Source: a virus. From it: a stretch of DNA of 64,000 nucleotides. Position 1 is the first letter of the stretch. Each line of letters begins with the position of its first letter. The translations under genes were made by a program, and so were the position numbers. Below the pieces are notes generated by a model. It was not told the origin of the DNA, ran no database searches, and worked only from the letters and a program-made list of their open reading frames with translations. The stretch covers positions 32,001 through 96,000 of IMG/VR virus record IMGVR_UViG_3300027704_003324; one strand, written 5' to 3'. This document shows, piece by piece, positions 17,440 to 33,229 of this stretch.

Positions 17440-17967
17440 TTATTTATTTAATTTATTAGTATTTTCTTTAGGCATTGTTAAACCTCCTATAAGGTTTATG
17501 TCATCTCTTTCGTCCTGTCTTTCATCTGGTTCGTTTGCTAAAAGCTCATTAGCCATTTCTATCCACTCCGGTAGGTCTACTTGTTCTTTATCTAAGACCT
17601 CTTGCATAGTTCCGATCCATTCATCTTCTCTTTTATAATCATCTTCTAATCGTACTATATCATCTTCTCCGAAGTAGGTACCAGTCTGTACTTCTATAAA
17701 TCTTACTGGTTTATCTGTTTCATTCCAAGCTCTATGTTTAGCTCCTAATGGTATTTTAATAGATTCTCCTGCTTTTCTAAATACTTTCTCATCATCAAGT
17801 ATAATAGTTAGTTCACCGTAGATAACAGTCCACTGCTCTTTACGTTTCGTGTGGTACTGGTAAGAGAGTCTTTGTCCGGGTTCAACTTCTATAATCTTAA
17901 CTTTAGCTTCTGAGGTATCATGTAATACTTCATATGCACCCCAAGGTCTATATTCTAATGACGACAT
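17440..17967 (-). CDS. mannose-6-phosphate isomerase type II C-terminal cupin
   Basis: RPWG, PGQRLSYQYH..R.E.W, IEVQTGTYFGEDDIVRLEDDY. Confidence 0.88.
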   Translation of the reverse strand: MSSLEYRPWGAYEVLHDTSEAKVKIIEVEPGQRLSYQYHTKRKEQWTVIYGELTIILDDEKVFRKAGESIKIPLGAKHRAWNETDKPVRFIEVQTGTYFGEDDIVRLEDDYKREDEWIGTMQEVLDKEQVDLPEWIEMANELLANEPDERQDERDDINLIGGLTMPKENTNKLNK

Positions 17968-18668
17968 ATGCTTGCTAATTCTATATTCTTATAAAACTCT
18001 GCTTTTGCAGAATCCTCATTTAAAAATGCTCCTGTTAACTTAGCAGTCTGCATTGAAGCTCCTTGATGCTTCACTCCTCTACAACTTACACAATTATGTG
18101 TTGCAGATATCATAACTGCTACTCCTAAATTACCTTCACATATCTTATTAACAGCATTATGAATAGCAACTGTTAATTGTTCTTGAATAGCACCTCTTCT
18201 TCCGAATTGCTCTACTATTCTATTTAATTTAGATAAGCCGACAACCTTCCCGGTCTCTGAAGCTATATAAGCTATGCTCACTTGTCCACCAATATTTTGG
18301 TGGTGGTGGGAGCACATAGACGTAACTGGAATATTAGATTCTTGTACGATTCCGTCGTAGCCGTCGCTAGGGAATGCCGTAATTCTGTCTAATGGCTCAT
18401 ATCGGCCCTTCCATAAATCGTTAACGTATGCTTTCGCTACTCTACGGGGAGTCTCAGAAGAGTTCGGATCATTTTTCCAATCCGTACCAAGAGCAGTCAA
18501 GAAGTCTCCAAATGCTTTTTCAGCATTATTAATGATAACTTCCTTCTCTTCTGATGTTAATCTAGCCTCAGGTCCGTCGGTTGCCTGCTTATCTGCTAGT
18601 TGAATGGATATACCGTTTGCATATCCAGCTTTTACTAATTCTGTTCCTTCTATAAACTTCTTTGCCAT
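17955..18668 (-). CDS. folE: GTP cyclohydrolase I (start taken as MAKKF at 18668)
   Basis: ETPRRVAKAY, SMCSHH, VGLSKLNR, IQEQLT, HNCVSCRGV. Confidence 0.95.
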   Translation of the reverse strand: MAKKFIEGTELVKAGYANGISIQLADKQATDGPEARLTSEEKEVIINNAEKAFGDFLTALGTDWKNDPNSSETPRRVAKAYVNDLWKGRYEPLDRITAFPSDGYDGIVQESNIPVTSMCSHHHQNIGGQVSIAYIASETGKVVGLSKLNRIVEQFGRRGAIQEQLTVAIHNAVNKICEGNLGVAVMISATHNCVSCRGVKHQGASMQTAKLTGAFLNEDSAKAEFYKNIELASICRH

Positions 18669-18678
18669 TTTCTCTTTA

Positions 18679-18705
18679 CTTGTTTTGTAGTGGTGCTTCA
18701 ACACT
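18679..18705 (-). promoter_or_regulatory. preQ1-I-like riboswitch aptamer in the folE leader
   Basis: AGUG-UUGAAGCAC-CACU-ACAAAACAAG between the promoter (18716-18725) and the ATG. Confidence 0.6.
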
Positions 18706-18734
18706 TATTAATACTTTAATATACGATTTTATTT

Positions 18735-19270: not shown

Positions 19271-19571
19271 ATTTTAATCCAAAAAATTTATAATTATTTA
19301 TAACTGCTTCTTTTTCTCCGTCGGCGATTGCATCTTCTTCTGTTTCGTATATTGCGTCTACTGGGCATTCTGGTATACAGGCTCCACAATCAATACATTC
19401 GTCTGGGTTGATATAAAGGCTTTTGCCTATTAGTTGTGATTTGGTCATTTCTGCAACTTCTGCTCCTGCTCCTGTTATATCTATAGGACCATGTATACAG
19501 TCTACAGGGCAAACTGTTACGCAAGCTGTATCGCAGGTACTAATGCACGGACTTCCTATTATATAACTCAT
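19260..19571 (-). CDS. 4Fe-4S dicluster ferredoxin
   Basis: [17 protein letters not shown] and [16 protein letters not shown]. Confidence 0.93.
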
Positions 19572-20350
19572 TATACTTCTCTTTGATCTTCAAATGCAAT
19601 GATATGGGGTCTCCAAGTCATTCTATACCCATTATCTCTAACCCAATCAAACAATACAGGGTAAGACTTAAATAGAGATTCTCTTGAGTCTCCTGCAGGC
19701 ATAAACCATACTTTATCTTGAGGTGCTTCTAAAGTATCTATACATTCCATTATTTCTTTTAATGCTGCTTTATCTTTACCATCCCATACCGGCTTTAAGT
19801 GGTAGTTAGAATGGTATGCAATACTTTTTTTCATTGCTTCATAATTAAGTCTAAACTTATTATGTTGTTTAATCATCCTTTCATCAGTAATCTTACCTTG
19901 TGGTGTTGCCACTCCAAGTACAGGTACCGAGTTAGAGAATTTGGGACTGATAGAAAGCAAATTGATAGGATAATCCGTAGGTAGAAAATGACTACCTTCG
20001 TTCTCCATAGTAATAAAAATATCTTTTTCATTAGCAAAATGTGTTAATTCATTAACTAGTTTTCCATGCATTGAAGGTGATCCTCCAGTAAGCATCATTT
20101 CTTTAATATGAGGATTCTTCTCATATGCTTTAATTATATCATTAAAGTTATATTGACCTTTATCTGGATGAATAGATGTATACCAGCTATCACACCAGCC
20201 TCCTTCTCCAAAATAACATCTATGAGTACATCCTGTAGTTCTAATCACTACCGTTGGATAACCTGCTCTACTACCTTCTGACTGTACCGCTGTATATATT
20301 TCTACAATCGGTAAATTTTTATCGTAATCTTCTACTCTACCTAGGGACAT
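19571..20350 (-). CDS. queE: 7-carboxy-7-deazaguanine synthase (radical SAM)
   Basis: [14 protein letters not shown]...WCDS, LTGG, SISPK. Confidence 0.9.
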
Positions 20351-20804
20351 ATATTGCTGAGTTTTTACCGTGTTCTCTAAATTCTACTTTTATAACTTTT
20401 ACTCTACCTTCAGTTTCCGTTTCTATGAATGGAGCTAACTTTTCGTATATATACTGTGAGAACTTCTCTGCTCCTGTAGCAGGTACTACTCTAACCTGTG
20501 CTATACCTATTTGATTAAGCCTCATTGCTTCAGGTAGAAATGGATCGTCTTCTGCTATTAAGTAGGTATGGTCAAACATATGATCCATCCATACTTTTGG
20601 AGACATTCCATCTATTAAGGTCTTAGCTCTTTTCATTCCTCCGAAATCCCATACCCAGTTTCTTTCATCTAAATCTCCTTCAAACCATAGTTTAAAAGAT
20701 ACTCCATAACCGTGTAGAAATCTACAATGAGTAGTTTCGGCTTTCCATTGTCGAAAGACTGTACTGAATCCATCGAATACTTTTGTTGATTGATATTTTG
20801 CCAT
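20337..20804 (-). CDS. queD: 6-carboxy-5,6,7,8-tetrahydropterin synthase
   Basis: HCRFLHGY, WDFG, FDHT, GAEKF. Confidence 0.9.
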   Translation of the reverse strand: MAKYQSTKVFDGFSTVFRQWKAETTHCRFLHGYGVSFKLWFEGDLDERNWVWDFGGMKRAKTLIDGMSPKVWMDHMFDHTYLIAEDDPFLPEAMRLNQIGIAQVRVVPATGAEKFSQYIYEKLAPFIETETEGRVKVIKVEFREHGKNSAIYVPR

Positions 20805-20812
20805 AATATAAT

Positions 20813-21064
20813 TTAAACTAATTCTTCCCCAATTCCAACTAATTCAGCTAAAAATAATAAAATAAAGCCTAACTCAAATAATCCGAAGAATCCAAAAGCA
20901 CATGCTCCTAGTCGAATTGCGGATTTAATAAAAGATATTTTTTGGTGTAAACTAGGATCGGGTATTTTTTGACCGTTGATCTCTAATGACGGTTTCATAA
21001 CTACTTGCCCTCGATCGTCTCTGTAATAAAGATCATCGTTCAATTTCTCTTGTAACTTTTTCAT
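20813..21064 (-). CDS. small membrane protein heading the queD-queE operon
   Basis: C-terminal hydrophobic hairpin ending GIGEELV. Confidence 0.7.
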   Translation of the reverse strand: MKKLQEKLNDDLYYRDDRGQVVMKPSLEINGQKIPDPSLHQKISFIKSAIRLGACAFGFFGLFELGFILLFLAELVGIGEELV

Positions 21065-21066
21065 TT

Positions 21067-21094
21067 CGTGTTTTTAAAGTGGTACTGTGACACT
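21067..21094 (-). promoter_or_regulatory. preQ1-I-like riboswitch aptamer in the leader of the queD-queE operon
   Basis: AGUG-UCACAGUAC-CACU-UUAAAAACACG, 2 nt before the ATG; close to the T. tengcongensis preQ1-I aptamer as remembered. Confidence 0.7.
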
Positions 21095-21120
21095 ATCGCC
21101 TTATATTAATACAATATACG

Positions 21121-21149
21121 AAAAAAGGAGATAGTAACCAACTATCCCC
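21121..21149 (-). terminator. intrinsic terminator
   Basis: GGGGATAGT-TGGTT-ACTATCTCC followed by TTTTTT on the minus strand. Confidence 0.75.
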
Positions 21150-21171
21150 CCTTAATCTTCTGTATTTTATT

Positions 21172-22870: not shown

Positions 22871-22987
22871 CTAAAAGTTCTTATAATTAAATGGGTCTCT
22901 GTTTTTTAACTCACGAATCTTTTTCTTATACGCTCTTGACGCTTTCCATGTGGTATAGTATTCTTTTATTACTTTAAGTATTCTCAT
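22871..22987 (-). CDS. small protein accompanying the carbamoyltransferase (38 aa), not in the ORF track
   Basis: MRILKVIKEYYTTWKASRAYKKKIRELKNRDPFNYKNF; ATGA overlap with the upstream stop. Confidence 0.65.
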   Translation of the reverse strand: MRILKVIKEYYTTWKASRAYKKKIRELKNRDPFNYKNF

Positions 22988-24654
22988 TTTTTCATTATTA
23001 AATAATTGTTAATAACAAGATAAGGGATATCACTATTAATGAACCTTGTTACAGCTTGTTCTGGTGTTCTAGTTATCGTCTGATCTTTAAGGTTAAACGA
23101 TGTATTTAGTACAACACCATGTCCTGATACTCTTTTTAGTTCCTGTAGTAATAAATAGTACTTTTTGTTCCTTTGTTTAGTAACTGATTGAATCCTAGCT
23201 GTATTATCTATGTGAGTAGCAGAAGGAAATAAGTTTTTAGCAGTCTCTTTTACTTTAACTACTTGATTCATATAAGGGACAGCTTCATTAGCGTCAAAAT
23301 ACTTAAGTACATCCTCATTAAGAACTGATGGAGCAAAAGGTCTAAACCCTTCTCTCTTTTTTATTGTATAGTTTAACTTATCTCTCATTTTAGCATTTGT
23401 TGGGGAAGCTAGTATACTTCTATTACCTAATGCTCTAGCTCCAAATTCCATACGGCCTTGAAACCATGCTACAATATTCTGGTTGTTAATTAGTGAAGCT
23501 GTTCGTTTTAGTAAAACTTCATAATCTAGTTTTAAAAAAGAAACTTTCCCTACGTTGTCCTCTAGTACTCCCTGTATATACTCATCTGTATAATGGTTTC
23601 CTAAATAAGGTGTAATATTGGTATGTTTAGGTCCTAAATAAGCAACTAGACAAGCTCCTATAGCTGATCCAGCATCTGAAGGTGCAAAAGGTATGTGGAT
23701 ATTTTTAAAGTACTTATAAGCTTTATTATTTGCTACTCCATTATATGCACATCCTCCTCCTAAACATAAATTGTCAGAATTACATATTAGTTTAGCTCTT
23801 TCTACTAATTTTAAAAACTCTCTTTCGTAAATATTCTGTAAAGCGCAAGCTAAATCTTTATGTTCTTGAGTAACTGGTTCTTCCGGTAAACGAGGTGCTA
23901 ACTGAAGTAATCCTGCAAGGTGTTTCGTGAACATTATATTATCTGAGTATTCCCAGGTAAAGTATCCTTGGTCTATTTCGAATTTATTAGAAGTTACATT
24001 AATAAATACTTGGTCTAATTTTTCATAGTATGTATTAGGATTTCCATACGGTGATAACCCCATTACTTTGTATTCTCCTTCATTTGGCTTAAACCCTAAA
24101 AAAGCTGTTATAGTTGAATATAACATTCCTAATGAATGTGGGAAGTCTATACTTAATTTCTTATCAATACCTTTTTCATCTCCTTTACTTATAGTAACAG
24201 TTTCAAATTCTCCAACTCCGTCTACTGTTAAAATTGCTGCGTCTTTATAAGGGGAAGTATAAAAAGAAAAAGCAGCGTGAGATAAATGATGATCTATATA
24301 TTTAATTTTACCCTTATATCCGTAGTTTTCTTTTAATAAAGTTTCTGGGTTATTTGCCTTATACTCTTTAAGGAATTTTCTACGTTTAAAAAATGTTCTT
24401 ATTGGCCTTTTTGCAAAAGACTTAAGAACTCTTTGTTTCTTCTTTTCCGGAACTTCATACCAGCATACTTCATTAACTTCTTCCATACTAATGCCAGTAT
24501 CTTTAAGGCACCAATTAATTGAATTTGTGGGAAAACTATAATCATGTTTAATCTCTGTAAATCTTTCTTCTTCTACAGCTGCTACTACTTTTCCGTCTAT
24601 TACTAAACAAGCAGCACTATCATGGTAAAAAGCAGATATTCCTAATTGTATCAT
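22984..24654 (-). CDS. carbamoyltransferase (NodU/CmcH family)
   Basis: YHDSAAC, EEERF, HHLSHA, GEYKVMGL, EFGARALGNRS, FRPFAPS, NTSFN. Confidence 0.95.
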   Translation of the reverse strand: MIQLGISAFYHDSAACLVIDGKVVAAVEEERFTEIKHDYSFPTNSINWCLKDTGISMEEVNEVCWYEVPEKKKQRVLKSFAKRPIRTFFKRRKFLKEYKANNPETLLKENYGYKGKIKYIDHHLSHAAFSFYTSPYKDAAILTVDGVGEFETVTISKGDEKGIDKKLSIDFPHSLGMLYSTITAFLGFKPNEGEYKVMGLSPYGNPNTYYEKLDQVFINVTSNKFEIDQGYFTWEYSDNIMFTKHLAGLLQLAPRLPEEPVTQEHKDLACALQNIYEREFLKLVERAKLICNSDNLCLGGGCAYNGVANNKAYKYFKNIHIPFAPSDAGSAIGACLVAYLGPKHTNITPYLGNHYTDEYIQGVLEDNVGKVSFLKLDYEVLLKRTASLINNQNIVAWFQGRMEFGARALGNRSILASPTNAKMRDKLNYTIKKREGFRPFAPSVLNEDVLKYFDANEAVPYMNQVVKVKETAKNLFPSATHIDNTARIQSVTKQRNKKYYLLLQELKRVSGHGVVLNTSFNLKDQTITRTPEQAVTRFINSDIPYLVINNYLIMKK

Positions 24655-24860
24655 TCTTTATTTATTCCGTATTTACTGTACTTATACCAAGCTCTCTCAT
24701 GAAAATAGTAAAGTATCATTTTTGTTATTACTTCTACTCCGCCAATTGAAAGTCCTATTTTCCAACTTCCTGTAATTAACCAAGATAGTATAAATGTATC
24801 TATAGTTCCAACTATTCTCCAAGATATAGTTTTAGCTAAATGTCTTTTATAATTTACCAT
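24651..24860 (-). CDS. DUF2061-like membrane protein
   Basis: KTISWRIVGT...LYYFHERAW. Confidence 0.85.
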   Translation of the reverse strand: MVNYKRHLAKTISWRIVGTIDTFILSWLITGSWKIGLSIGGVEVITKMILYYFHERAWYKYSKYGINKE

Positions 24861-25203
24861 CCTCCTTCATTTGGTTCCTGATCTTAGTAGCTGAGATATC
24901 GTGTATGTCCTTGGGAGGTACGTGCTCTATTACTTCGTATCCTACTCCCCTACCGTAATTAATTGACTCAATATCCGGAATCTTAATTACCTTAACTCTT
25001 CCTTCTTCTATTAAATCTTTAAGCTCTTCTGCTAAATTCATTAGGACTTCTTGTGCAGTCCAAGGTTGTGACGAATTAGGCTCTACATCTCTAATGCAAA
25101 CTAATACGTTTTTACCTATTTTTAATCTTTGTTCGATTAACCATCTATGGCCTGGATGCCAAGGTTGCCATCTACCGATGTACATTGAAAATTGTTTGCT
25201 CAT
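24847..25203 (-). CDS. HIGH-family nucleotidyltransferase (possible minimal sulfate adenylyltransferase)
   Basis: GRWQPWHPGH, YGRGVGY, ISATKIR; adjacent to cysC. Confidence 0.75.
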   Translation of the reverse strand: MSKQFSMYIGRWQPWHPGHRWLIEQRLKIGKNVLVCIRDVEPNSSQPWTAQEVLMNLAEELKDLIEEGRVKVIKIPDIESINYGRGVGYEVIEHVPPKDIHDISATKIRNQMKEDGKL

Positions 25204-25640
25204 AATCCGAATACTATATGTTCTATTAAATTATATGATGCTTCTGGGGTATCTATTGTTGTGTTGATAGCAATGAAGTCTTTTTTAGGAGCTATATAAG
25301 CTTCTGCTTTAAAATGATCTCTTTCTCTAGGTTCAGTAGTATAGACGTAAAATTCACAAATATTTTTTTCACCTATTAATGTTTTAAAATCCTCTCTTTG
25401 GTCAATATAAGGAGCTATTAAAGAAACAATAACTGTTCTTCCTTTTTTATGTAGGTAGTGTGCTATTTTTTGTGCTGTAGTTACGTTTTCTACTCTTCCT
25501 TTTATTGAATAGTCTTTATTAGTTGTTAACTCTCTTAAATCGTCTCCATCAATATGAAAAGAGCCTGGTATTGCTGTATGTAGCTTTTTAGCTAATGTAG
25601 TCTTTCCAGCTGCTGGCTGGCCTGTAAACCAATATATCAT
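25200..25640 (-). CDS. cysC: adenylylsulfate kinase
   Basis: WFTGQPAAGKTT, IDGDDLR, SLIAPY. Confidence 0.85.
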   Translation of the reverse strand: MIYWFTGQPAAGKTTLAKKLHTAIPGSFHIDGDDLRELTTNKDYSIKGRVENVTTAQKIAHYLHKKGRTVIVSLIAPYIDQREDFKTLIGEKNICEFYVYTTEPRERDHFKAEAYIAPKKDFIAINTTIDTPEASYNLIEHIVFGL

Positions 25641-26438: not shown

Positions 26439-26512
26439 TGGAGAATATCGGAGTCGAACCGATGACCTCCTGCGTGCAAGGCAGGCGCTCTAGCCAGCTG
26501 AGCTAATCCCCC
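26439..26512 (-). tRNA. tRNA-Ala(UGC)
   Basis: GGGGGATTAGCTCAGCTGGCTAGAGCGCCTGCCTTGCACGCAGGAGGTCATCGGTTCGACTCCGATATTCTCCA; G3:U70 identity pair; CCA not encoded. Confidence 0.97.
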
Positions 26513-26844: not shown

Positions 26845-27660
26845 TTAATCTCTTCCTTTAATAACGGCTGAATTATGGTCTGAAAGTATAAGCTCTACAT
26901 GCGTTTTCGCAACGTTGTATTCAACTTCTCCACTTTCATCCTCATATTGTACAGGGTCATCCACACCCAACATGATAAATGCTTCAATTCTTTCAACAGA
27001 TGATGCTGATTTATAGTCGCTATTACCGCTAGGATAAGGCTTATAGGAAGTATTAGTACGTTTGTACACTTCATTAAAATCAATTCCCAACTCTTTAACC
27101 AGTTTCTGTCCATCTTTTAATATTCCAAATTTGTCTGTATCTAAGTAAGGAGTAAAATACCCTACTCTTTCTGCATCCCAATTCCCTTCTCGAAATGCTA
27201 AATCATCCGCGTCTCTAAACTCTTGTCTACAGTCCGGATATACTGCATGATCACCTGCGTGAATACCTAAAGCAATATCACAGGTCTCTTCTGCTTTATT
27301 AGCTACTGATAATGCTACAGCTTGTGTAATAGAAGCAAATATCTTATTCCTATTAGGTACTACTGTTTCTTTCATATTATCATTCTCATAATGTCCTTCA
27401 GGTACATCATCTCCTCCTTCAACTAATGCTGAATCTAGAAGGCTTGCAAGTCCGTCTAGTTTAATTTGACGATAATTAACTCTATGACCATTATCAGCTA
27501 GATAATTAATTAAAGATTGAGCCTTTTCTAACTCTACTCTATGCTTTTGACCATAATCAAATGAAATACCAGTTACGGTATCGTACTCTTTTAATGCTCT
27601 TAATAATAATGTGGAACTATCCATTCCACCACTTAATGATACTACTACATGCTTTGCCAT
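26845..27660 (-). CDS. queC: 7-cyano-7-deazaguanine synthase
   Basis: SGGMDS, FDYGQKH, TVVPNRN, YPDCR. Confidence 0.95.
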   Translation of the reverse strand: MAKHVVVSLSGGMDSSTLLLRALKEYDTVTGISFDYGQKHRVELEKAQSLINYLADNGHRVNYRQIKLDGLASLLDSALVEGGDDVPEGHYENDNMKETVVPNRNKIFASITQAVALSVANKAEETCDIALGIHAGDHAVYPDCRQEFRDADDLAFREGNWDAERVGYFTPYLDTDKFGILKDGQKLVKELGIDFNEVYKRTNTSYKPYPSGNSDYKSASSVERIEAFIMLGVDDPVQYEDESGEVEYNVAKTHVELILSDHNSAVIKGRD

Positions 27661-27748
27661 GTTCTATTATTTTTTAATTTGCCAGGTATTGATAACGTAT
27701 AGGCGGACGTTTTATTTAATATATGAAATATACTTCTATATTCCAACC

Positions 27749-31885: not shown

Positions 31886-33229
31886 TTAGGTTTTGTCGAA
31901 TATTTTTTCCATTTTTTCTTTAGTTAAGCTGTAAATCGGCTTATCGTCGGGAATTAAGTCTGAAGCGTTAGCTTCTCCGTCAAAAGTAATATGACCATTA
32001 TTAGTATCCATTTTAAGATTATAAGTCATACCATCTTGCCCGTATCTGTTCTTCATAACGTGCCATCTACCTGTACCTAGTACTTTATCTTCTTTCATTC
32101 TAGATAAAGAGAAACACATATCCGCTACCATCATCTTATCGTAAGAACCTGCTGCCTTATCTCCTTCAATTACTGAATCTTTAGCTCCCATACGGTTAAC
32201 CTGAGATGGAGTAATGATTGGTATCTTTAATTCTTTTGCTAATCCTTTAGTAGCAATAAATACATCATCAATTTCGTCTTTACGTTCGTTATATTTACCT
32301 TTAGAAGGAGCTCTTAAATAGTCCACATAGTCAATTACTATCATATCTGGTTTATGATCCATATCCATACATTTCTGTACGTGAGATTTTATAGTATTTA
32401 CTGTAGCCCCTTTAGGTGGGTATTCTTTTACTATTAACTTACCTTTTAATCCGTCTACTAGTATTTGAACTTCATCTCTATGTTTATTTACTTCGTCAAT
32501 TGAATGACCAGTAAAATAACAATCAAATCTCTTACCAACATAGTCTTCTCCTAATTCTAAGGTATAGTAGTTAACATTATATCCCATCTTGACTGCATGT
32601 GCTGCCATTGCTACACAAGTCCAACTCTTACCTCCTCCAGGATTACCAAAAACTATTGCTAAATCACCTGGACCGAATCCACCTTGAATACCTGCATTTA
32701 ATTCAGGCCATGGAGTTGGTATAGTAGGTCTATAGTCTTCTCTATAACGAGTTTCTACATCTTTATTATACTCATGACCCATATTCTTATCCATACCTGC
32801 TTTCATGGCTTTTTCGATCTGGTTTCTAATACCATCGAAATCTCCATCTTTTAATAAGTCGGTAGAATTTAAGATTGCGGCTTTCATTTCTTGATTCTTA
32901 CAAAAAGTAGTAAACTCTTCCTGTATATACTCTAGATCATCTTGTGAAGCTTCGTAAGAGTTTCTAAGCTCTTCTTTTAATGCAACTACTAGTACCTCAT
33001 TTTCAACCTTTTGAAGTTCTACTTTAAGAACATCCATTGTAATGTTTGTATGGTAATTGTCAAAGTAACTAATTATTTGACTTATAATCCACTTATGTGA
33101 ATCTGCGTCAAAATATCCTTCTTGAAGGACGTCTCTTACATTAAGTAAGAACGTTTTGTCGGTCAATAAGGATCCTAATACTTTTAATTGGAACCCCTTC
33201 CCGTACTGCTGTAGCGATTTTAATGTCAT
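31886..33229 (-). CDS. DnaB/T4 gp41-like replicative helicase
   Basis: GNPGGGKS, TLEL, IDYVD, SQVNR, KNRYG. Confidence 0.9.
   Translation of the reverse strand: MTLKSLQQYGKGFQLKVLGSLLTDKTFLLNVRDVLQEGYFDADSHKWIISQIISYFDNYHTNITMDVLKVELQKVENEVLVVALKEELRNSYEASQDDLEYIQEEFTTFCKNQEMKAAILNSTDLLKDGDFDGIRNQIEKAMKAGMDKNMGHEYNKDVETRYREDYRPTIPTPWPELNAGIQGGFGPGDLAIVFGNPGGGKSWTCVAMAAHAVKMGYNVNYYTLELGEDYVGKRFDCYFTGHSIDEVNKHRDEVQILVDGLKGKLIVKEYPPKGATVNTIKSHVQKCMDMDHKPDMIVIDYVDYLRAPSKGKYNERKDEIDDVFIATKGLAKELKIPIITPSQVNRMGAKDSVIEGDKAAGSYDKMMVADMCFSLSRMKEDKVLGTGRWHVMKNRYGQDGMTYNLKMDTNNGHITFDGEANASDLIPDDKPIYSLTKEKMEKIFDKT

Follow-up and report, generated by a model that had tools for sequence, protein, structure and literature searches.

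Introduction

Class I preQ1 riboswitches (preQ1-I) are described as reading their ligand through four positions: the C immediately 5' of the 3' strand of stem P1, the U of loop L1 (U6), the last A of loop L3, and the G of the closing pair (PMC11625349). Flavobacterium phage vB_FspM_immuto makes bases of this kind for its own genome, in which all G is reported to be replaced by formyl-preQ1 (PMC10516641). Here, we analyze a small RNA element in the leader of folE (GTP cyclohydrolase I) in a stretch of viral DNA of 64,000 nucleotides (nt), positions 32,001 to 96,000 of IMG/VR record IMGVR_UViG_3300027704_003324. This whole stretch, referred to as the window, lies within a 139-kb virus record and is related to immuto and to Cellulophaga phage phiST. 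From comparative evidence, we lean toward reading the folE-leader element as a translational switch that senses a 7-deazaguanine, and we hold with greater confidence that it is a selected RNA element.

Class I aptamers are divided into types. As a 2024 review describes them, an AC precedes the P1 3' strand in types II and III, the 5' strand is followed by UU in types I and III, and the ceiling of the type II pocket is built on a pair between a loop G and a tail C (PMC11625349). Type III, which that review gives as almost exclusive to Pseudomonadota (PMC11625349), is represented by E. coli yhhQ; it has a one-nucleotide L1 and a 3-nt L2, binds preQ1 at 52 nM as a 30-mer, and is reported to tolerate L3 shortening or a change in L3 length (PMC10622847). 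Riboswitches have been reported as very rare in phages (PMC5473149), and those in messenger RNAs that lack a Shine-Dalgarno (SD) sequence are named as an open challenge (PMC11625349).

Results

The folE-leader element and its sister copy

Inspection of the minus strand at 18705-18679 gave AGUG-UUGAAGCAC-CACU-ACAAAA-CAAG, a 27-nt element upstream of the folE ATG at 18668. Its parts and surroundings, read from the sequence unless stated, are as follows.

18725-18716, minus strand: promoter-like box CGTATATTAA, containing the CGTATATT box; 10 nt lie between box and stem
18705-18702, minus strand: P1 5' strand AGUG; G18702 would pair with C18692 as the pocket floor
18701-18693, minus strand: 9-nt loop UUGAAGCAC, with U18701 as the L1 U, G18696 as the candidate partner of the tail C, and A18694-C18693 as the AC that includes the specificity C
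18692-18689, minus strand: P1 3' strand CACU (sequence and covariation)
18688-18683, minus strand: A-rich L3, ACAAAA, 6 nt
18682-18679, minus strand: tail CAAG; C18682 is the invariant tail C and candidate partner of loop G18696, and G18679 faces A18698 (an A-G mismatch)
18678-18669, minus strand: A-rich spacer UAAAGAGAAA, 10 nt, without SD sequence
17955-18668, minus strand: folE, the gene behind the element, ATG at 18668-18666 (PF01227, E 1.4e-43)

The TAnnTT core of the CGTATATTAA box resembles what we take to be the Bacteroidota -7 element. A TATATT lies within 35 nt upstream in 88 of 99 unique motif instances, in DNA that is AT-rich.

A preliminary description of this DNA had placed the element between a promoter motif and the folE ATG, and the minus-strand sequence from 18725 to 18666 bears this out. 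It had also judged the start at 18704 in the open reading frame (ORF) track to be wrong. We agree, as the stem-to-ATG distance varies among near-identical folE leaders (18, 19, or 20 nt), placing the GTG out of frame, and other relatives carry an in-frame TAA directly 5' of the folE ATG. This 1-2 nt variation in spacer length, together with the in-frame stop, argues that GTG 18704 is not the start codon. In the relatives whose leaders were read, the FolE N-terminus M[AP]KKFI[ED]G is conserved from ATG 18668. Two finer points made there also stood: the T. tengcongensis (Tte) construct printed in PMC10639078 does include the 10-nt tail ACAAAACAAG, and the A-G mismatch at one pseudoknot pair is real under a Tte-like register.

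A sister aptamer, copy B, lies before a second operon of the same pathway, with these features.

21094-21067, minus strand: copy B, AGUG-UCACAGUAC-CACU-UUAAAAA-CACG, followed by AA and the AUG at 21064-21062 (whole feature 21062-21097)
21113-21120, minus strand: CGTATATT box of copy B
21121-21152, minus strand: terminator-like GC hairpin with a U-run, ending the upstream ORF of 557 amino acids (aa) just before the copy B box; unflagged by the terminator scan
21064-20813, minus strand: 83-aa ORF
20804-20337, minus strand: queD
20350-19571, minus strand: queE, completing the operon behind copy B (19571-21064)

When this phage was left out of the model, copy B scored 38.8 bits (E 2.9e-6). The queD product matches PF01242 (E 5.4e-14), the queE product reaches 22.3 bits for Radical_SAM, below the Pfam cut-off, and homologues of both are annotated as QueD and QueE in immuto and phiST. 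Most phages have a small ORF of 61-107 aa (here 20813-21064), with an N-terminal ..ELYDRE.R.. in many copies, that separates the copy-B-type aptamer from queD. This ORF matched nothing in Pfam or PHROG, and in a few phages that lack it queD or queE follows the aptamer directly. The 21121-21152 hairpin is also drawn within a weak Rfam "trpB motif" alignment.

The motif had been said to occur only before these two deazaguanine units, and pattern AGTGTNNNAGYACCACT indeed matches just these two sites in the window. Shuffled sequences gave a mean of 0.01 matches, with two or more in none of 100, for a pattern that was drawn from the two sites themselves. A looser descriptor (4-base-pair [bp] stem closed by G-C; 9-nt loop U-N6-AC; at most 3 nt; at least four A and then C), with stem and loop lengths picked after the sites had been seen, recovered the same two window sites and no others; 300 dinucleotide-preserving shuffles averaged 0.023 matches and never reached two. 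With the family model R1, we found no further strong copies in the window or in the whole virus record.

The element is conserved across phages and tied to deazaguanine genes

We retrieved 80 IMG/VR loci by FolE homology and searched 79 of them with R1, leaving aside L003, which is the window's own sequence and not independent. All 74 matches fell on the folE strand: 55 were in the leader of folE itself, and the other 19 stood before queD, about 2.3 kb upstream. Counting L003, the element is in the folE leader of 56 of the 80 loci. The cultured phage vB_FspM_immuto_2-6A has a folE-leader copy as well (L001, 4854-4888).

A gene-blind DNA pattern scan of IMG/VR returned more than 120 stretches, which pooled with the FolE-derived loci to 91 unique instances. 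The element precedes folE in 31 of these, queD-queE (with or without the small ORF) in 54, queE in 2, and folE2 in 1; the remaining 3 contigs are cut within ~80 nt. Thus, 88 of 91 unique instances precede folE, folE2, queD, or queE, an association with preQ0/preQ1/queuosine genes. In the folE2 case (L237, 3064-4099, minus strand), a GGAG stem with a UCGUAGAAC loop stands before a 332-aa FolE2 (PF02649, E 9.7e-66), an enzyme that is non-homologous to FolE and performs the same step. On comparative grounds, this is the strongest single argument for the element, as the enzyme family has been swapped and the leader retained. A DpdA-like gene lies ~2.2 kb downstream in the same locus.

Stem P1 varies in sequence and keeps its pairing. 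The stems seen were UGAG/CUCA, UGUG/CACA, GGAG/CUCC, AGUG/CACU, GGUG/CACC, and UAAG/CUUA. Among 41 unique sequences, 99.4% of cells were paired, a figure partly built in by a row-selection regular expression that demanded the inner three P1 pairs, and three of the four pairs occur in alternative forms with both bases replaced (AU/UA/GC, GC/AU, UA/AU). The score for covariation was 0.575 vs. 0.131 in shuffles, none of 500 of which reached it, and slid controls stayed at or below 0.21. The outer pair is free of the selection bias; it can form in 40 of 41 sequences and takes three types. The closing G-C, with G on the 5' strand, was present in all 41. P1 therefore covaries, at 4 bp, one pair shorter than in solved aptamers.

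In alignments of 41 and 83 sequences alike, the closing G-C never changes, nor do five loop positions: U at 1, A at 5, G at 6, A at 8, and C at 9. The four class I ligand-reading positions were likewise invariant in both, and are present in the folE copy: the specificity C is always preceded by A (here A18694-C18693), and the first loop position is always U (here U18701). L3 ranges from 5 to 9 nt, most often 7, and every instance has a run of 3-8 A and then C, a regularity partly imposed by the selection expression. Loop G6 and the tail C are also invariant, and so speak neither for nor against their pairing.

The comparison of both leaders with homologs, which the preliminary description had proposed, thus found conservation at the homologous place and a covarying P1. 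Together with the invariant ligand-contact positions and the link to folE, folE2, queD, and queE, this backs its reading of a preQ1-like aptamer upstream of folE.

The folE copy carries a rarer loop variant

Positions 2 and 4 set loop UUGAAGCAC apart from the common UCGUAGCAC, and this UU..A.. form is the rarer one. Among 78 unique sequences, no loop carries only one of the two changes (C2 to U, U4 to A). In IMG/VR, the variant is a true leader only in this phage and one other lineage, while the other 10 matches are coding sequence; in a metagenome scan, 19 of 26 variant matches are folE leaders. These 19 have stems AGUG/CACU or GGUG/CACC, tails CAAGU or CAAAU, and an L3 of 6 or 9 nt. The second pair of the pseudoknot helix P2 is A-G here and A-A in the other clade. 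This lost pair may mean lower affinity or shifted selectivity.

The variant was placed at least two times on a tree of 64 distinct FolE rows. The tree is a quick search with low support that excludes identical proteins and loci whose FolE was missed by the regular expression (L013 is mislabelled "none"), and it does not separate recombination from repeated origin of the variant. Wherever the contig is long enough, in the window and in L123, the variant coexists with a consensus-type copy B. In L039, L259, and L272, of the variant's GGUG clade, the spacer ..AAAUGUAAAUGG.. puts an AUG-UAA mini-ORF directly before the folE AUG.

The compact form is confined to phages in the genomes searched

To cover bacteria, a pattern scan with the consensus loop took one genome per species across 185,579 species and gave 34 matches in 33 stretches. 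All four stem pairs were present only in the two matches of L103, a 5.9-kb contig that holds both phage leaders with phage promoter boxes and had been binned in a metagenome-assembled genome. For the genomes scanned, a bacterial origin was rejected, with full-stem matches confined to this phage-like contig. R1 at E ≤ 0.01 found none in 141 Flavobacteriaceae genomes under strict filters, with ~46 candidates scored per genome. Because it is absent from the bacterial genomes searched, the phage form does not appear to have been copied from a host leader among those genomes. The family appears to be phage-specific and miniature, class-I-preQ1-like at ~27-30 nt, with a 4-bp P1, a 9-nt loop, an A-rich L3, and a tail C.

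The leader lacks a Shine-Dalgarno sequence and a terminator

No SD-like GGAG occurs between 18688 and 18669, and the terminator scan found none between aptamer and ATG. In copy-B-type leaders, the ATG comes 12-16 nt after the stem; in folE leaders, this gap is 15-20 nt. The expression platform would be the A-rich, SD-less leader itself. A sigma-70 scan performed at chance (12 found vs. 11.6 expected) and was uninformative.

RNA evidence came from four metatranscriptome contig sets of two studies; such contigs cannot show transcription starts, may include DNA, and mix organisms in their depth over folE. Two contigs of one study end at 21089 and 21093, 1-5 nt inside the copy B stem, and the other study's contigs bridge copy B.

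Genome context

The window shares the gene order of immuto: queD, queE, a ferredoxin-like ORF, a phosphoribosyltransferase-like ORF, folE, DUF4494, a MazG-like ORF, a 265-aa ORF, and a PurN-like formyltransferase, with queC further upstream. The 265-aa ORF, at the place of the immuto DpdA, has only a PHROG of unknown function.

The queC leader (27672-27716, minus strand; ATG at 27660) contains a different and strongly conserved H-type pseudoknot, with P1 AACGU/ACGUU, loop NN-GCC-UAU, and tail AAUACCU-GGC-AAA. It was found in 75 of 80 loci retrieved by QueC homology (59 unique). Three of its five P1 pairs change on both sides, none of 500 shuffles reached its covariation score, and its P2 covaries in four divergent loci (GGCCC/GGGUC, GACCC/GGGUC). 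It has no Rfam match. Its topology is like that of preQ1-I, but its closing pair is U-A and a U stands in place of the specificity C.

Between the queD operon and queC, 22984-25640 (minus strand) encodes a carbamoyltransferase (PF02543/PF16861, E ~1e-62), a cytidylyltransferase-like ORF, and an adenosine phosphosulfate (APS)-kinase-like ORF, a set that may hint at additional chemistry on nucleotides or bases. A tRNA gene (26439-26512, minus strand; 66.8 bits) lies between a flavodoxin-like ORF and queC.

Discussion

A candidate feedback switch on folE

Our results suggest that an RNA sensing a metabolite probably lets the phage restrain its production of the modified guanine that it places in its DNA. 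As we picture it, the folE-leader copy would be an SD-independent OFF switch that senses preQ1 or preQ0, where the ligand, the pseudoknot, the OFF direction, and the level of translation are all inferred. When the free 7-deazaguanine base (preQ1, possibly preQ0) accumulates, it would dock between the G18702-C18692 floor and the G18696-C18682 ceiling, and would be read by C18693 through Watson-Crick pairing, by U18701, and by the A that ends the A-run. The A-rich, SD-less leader, which Bacteroidota-type ribosomes are expected to need single-stranded, would thereby be folded into an H-type pseudoknot. Less folE would then be translated, giving feedback at the first step of the pathway, and copy B would act likewise on queD and queE.

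Several of our results weigh against this switch. Rfam model RF00522 gives the folE copy 12.4 bits (E 2.2 on 111 nt), against a cut-off of 39; it has no match for copy B or the immuto copy, and none at the gathering threshold in the window or in 20 loci. Because this model fails, we describe the element as preQ1-I-like in its presumed working but as a variant outside the curated family boundary. Thermodynamic folding carries no signal (z +0.72 and +1.01), and the minimum-free-energy structure of the folE-leader copy is a competing hairpin, GUGU-UGAA-GCAC (18693-18704, minus strand), which excludes P1. With both this phage and the variant excluded from model building, the folE copy scores 18.5 bits (E 0.1) and the next window match 15.4 bits; the copy ranks second in the window and falls exactly in the folE leader. 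The caution voiced in the preliminary description over a weakened pseudoknot pair was thus well placed, with the folE copy a distinct sub-variant by this score. P2 beyond the invariant G-C is itself poorly supported. Its second pair (loop position 4 vs. tail +3, in the Tte-like register) is standard in 59 of 78 unique sequences, with loop C4 facing G in 5 of 5, and neither the Tte-like nor a bulged-A5 register was clearly favored among the 78. The selection built into the P1 pairing figure counts on the same side.

The distribution and the RNA contigs add to these reservations. The folE-leader element is missing from 24 of the 80 loci (L004, L029-L031, L040-L043, L046, L047, L065-L069, L071-L075, and L079-L082), which have only a short leader from promoter to ATG. 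One of these, L004, encodes a FolE 90% identical to that of the window and has kept copy B. With 24 loci lacking it, L004 included, the folE-leader element has been gained or lost repeatedly. One RNA-library contig (18234-18940, 0 mismatches) bridges the folE leader, running across the +1 near 18710 that the preliminary description predicts, and because no terminator precedes that leader, read-through from the upstream operon into folE is possible.

Across the family, C at loop position 7 occurs only alongside U at stem position 3, as hairpin GUGU-UGAA-GCAC requires; this alternative hairpin may be the apo-state structure, or shared ancestry may lie behind the link between the two positions. 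At the gathering threshold, Rfam returned only a tRNA in the window, and among its E-value matches in the scanned leaders there was no other riboswitch family, folate-type included. We discounted the weak E-value matches (trpB motif, snoRNAs, DUF805 RNA at 12.8 bits for copy B, Histone3) as meaningless.

Alternative explanations

The simplest alternative, a chance hairpin without function in an AT-rich leader, could draw on the mere 4 bp of the stem, the positive folding z, and the silence of Rfam. It is effectively refuted by the compensatory stem changes, by the recurrence of the element in the same place in 55 of 79 loci, and by the failure of any of 300 shuffles to yield two descriptor matches. 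A functional RNA that senses no small molecule is harder to dismiss: the element could serve as a translational operator or 5' stabilizer for some protein, of phage or host origin, that controls the deazaguanine genes together. Such an operator would explain the conservation, the gene association, and the covarying stem equally well, and the weakly supported P2, the unremarkable folding energy, and the failing Rfam riboswitch model would even suit it. We nonetheless find it quite unlikely. The positions that never vary coincide exactly with the four ligand-reading positions and the presumed ceiling pair, in the order and spacing of 30-34-nt class I aptamers as these are described in PMC11625349; the loci inspected show no candidate regulator gene that accompanies the element; and the leader is kept where FolE2 replaces FolE.

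More room is left for the idea that the UUGAAGCAC copy has changed its job, although we consider this doubtful. It could sense another 7-deazaguanine (preQ0, 7-carboxy-7-deazaguanine [CDG], or formyl-preQ1), differ from copy B in its selectivity or affinity for preQ1, or be a weakened relic. The linked changes at loop positions 2 and 4 without intermediates, the loss of the second P2 pair, the low score against the family model, and the constant presence of a consensus-type copy B alongside the variant (window; L123) are all in keeping with such a change. Type III, whose loop also starts with UU, is reported to prefer preQ1 over preQ0 133-fold (PMC10622847). Yet the four ligand-reading positions are unaltered, and U at loop position 2 is given as normal in the preQ1-binding types I and III (PMC11625349), so that it is no argument against preQ1 binding. 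A decaying relic in particular sits poorly with the variant's retention in at least two FolE lineages and 19 metagenome leaders with a covarying outer stem pair, and we take it not to be one.

Beyond the feedback switch on folE itself lies a broader and, in our view, unlikely proposal, namely that three distinct small RNA sensors run the DNA-hypermodification pathway: queD and queE would answer to a Tte-like mini aptamer, folE to the UU-type variant, whose selectivity (preQ1/preQ0 or formyl-preQ1) or set-point would be different, and queC to the unrelated pseudoknot in its leader. If true, these would together be the smallest natural riboswitch aptamers (~27 nt), the first shown to work without an SD sequence, and the first to govern DNA base modification.

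Significance

A paper on phage Dp-1 (Sabri 2011) is said to mention a preQ1-type riboswitch. Our literature search found no paper on a preQ1-type riboswitch in phage deazaguanine-DNA clusters; the McCown 2014 alignments or Supplementary Data S1 of PMC10516641 could hold such sequences. The word "riboswitch" is absent from the main text of the latter, which describes the fdPreQ1 pathway of immuto (PMC10516641). If the switch is real, a metabolite-sensing RNA that gates GTP cyclohydrolase together with QueD and QueE would show how a phage that replaces all its G divides its GTP between DNA precursors and base synthesis, and the preQ1-I class would then take in a shorter P1 and translation control without an SD sequence. 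The presence of variant and consensus copies in one genome is a natural experiment in which two loop positions would tune an aptamer, and the copy in cultured immuto makes the idea directly testable.

Comparison with known preQ1-I riboswitches

The phage element closely recalls type II (T. tengcongensis, B. subtilis queC; RF00522). The order of parts is the same, from P1 and the L1 U through a putative P2 5' strand with G, an L2 ending in AC, the P1 3' strand, and an A-rich L3 to the tail C; the G-C floor pair is common to both, as the presumed G-C ceiling pair would be. The tail of the folE copy repeats 10 nt of the Tte tail, and the loop of copy B is one deletion and one substitution away from the Tte loop, as far as the constructs given in PMC10639078 show. 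Both elements are tied to genes of 7-deazaguanine synthesis. The phage form differs in its P1 of 4 bp rather than 5, its loop of 9 nt rather than 10-12, and its L3 of 6-7 nt; it has no SD sequence in P2 and no terminator; and it occurs in phages that place the base into DNA, not in tRNA-queuosine operons. In the folE copy, moreover, the loop opens with UU instead of UC, and an A-G stands at the second P2 pair.

Type III shares the short loop, and its UU start and CAC end, at the loop positions named in PMC10622847, match the loop of the folE copy. By contrast, its P2 5' strand is rich in pyrimidines and pairs with a Shine-Dalgarno sequence, AAGG, and its ceiling is U-A, whereas the phage strand is GAAG, its ceiling would be G-C, and it has no SD sequence. 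Because type III is so compact and still binds as a 30-mer, a 27-30-nt aptamer with a 9-nt loop is physically plausible.

A preQ1-I element from the host family was found in L280, the one genome of 141 Flavobacteriaceae in which RF00522 passed its cut-off (50 bits). It differs from the phage element in a 5-bp P1 and a 12-nt loop that opens with UU and ends with UC, the type I signature, and it precedes a membrane protein that may, by the look of its N-terminus, be a precursor transporter. Like the phage leader, however, the L280 aptamer stands directly before an SD-less start codon, which shows that the class can work in Bacteroidota leaders.

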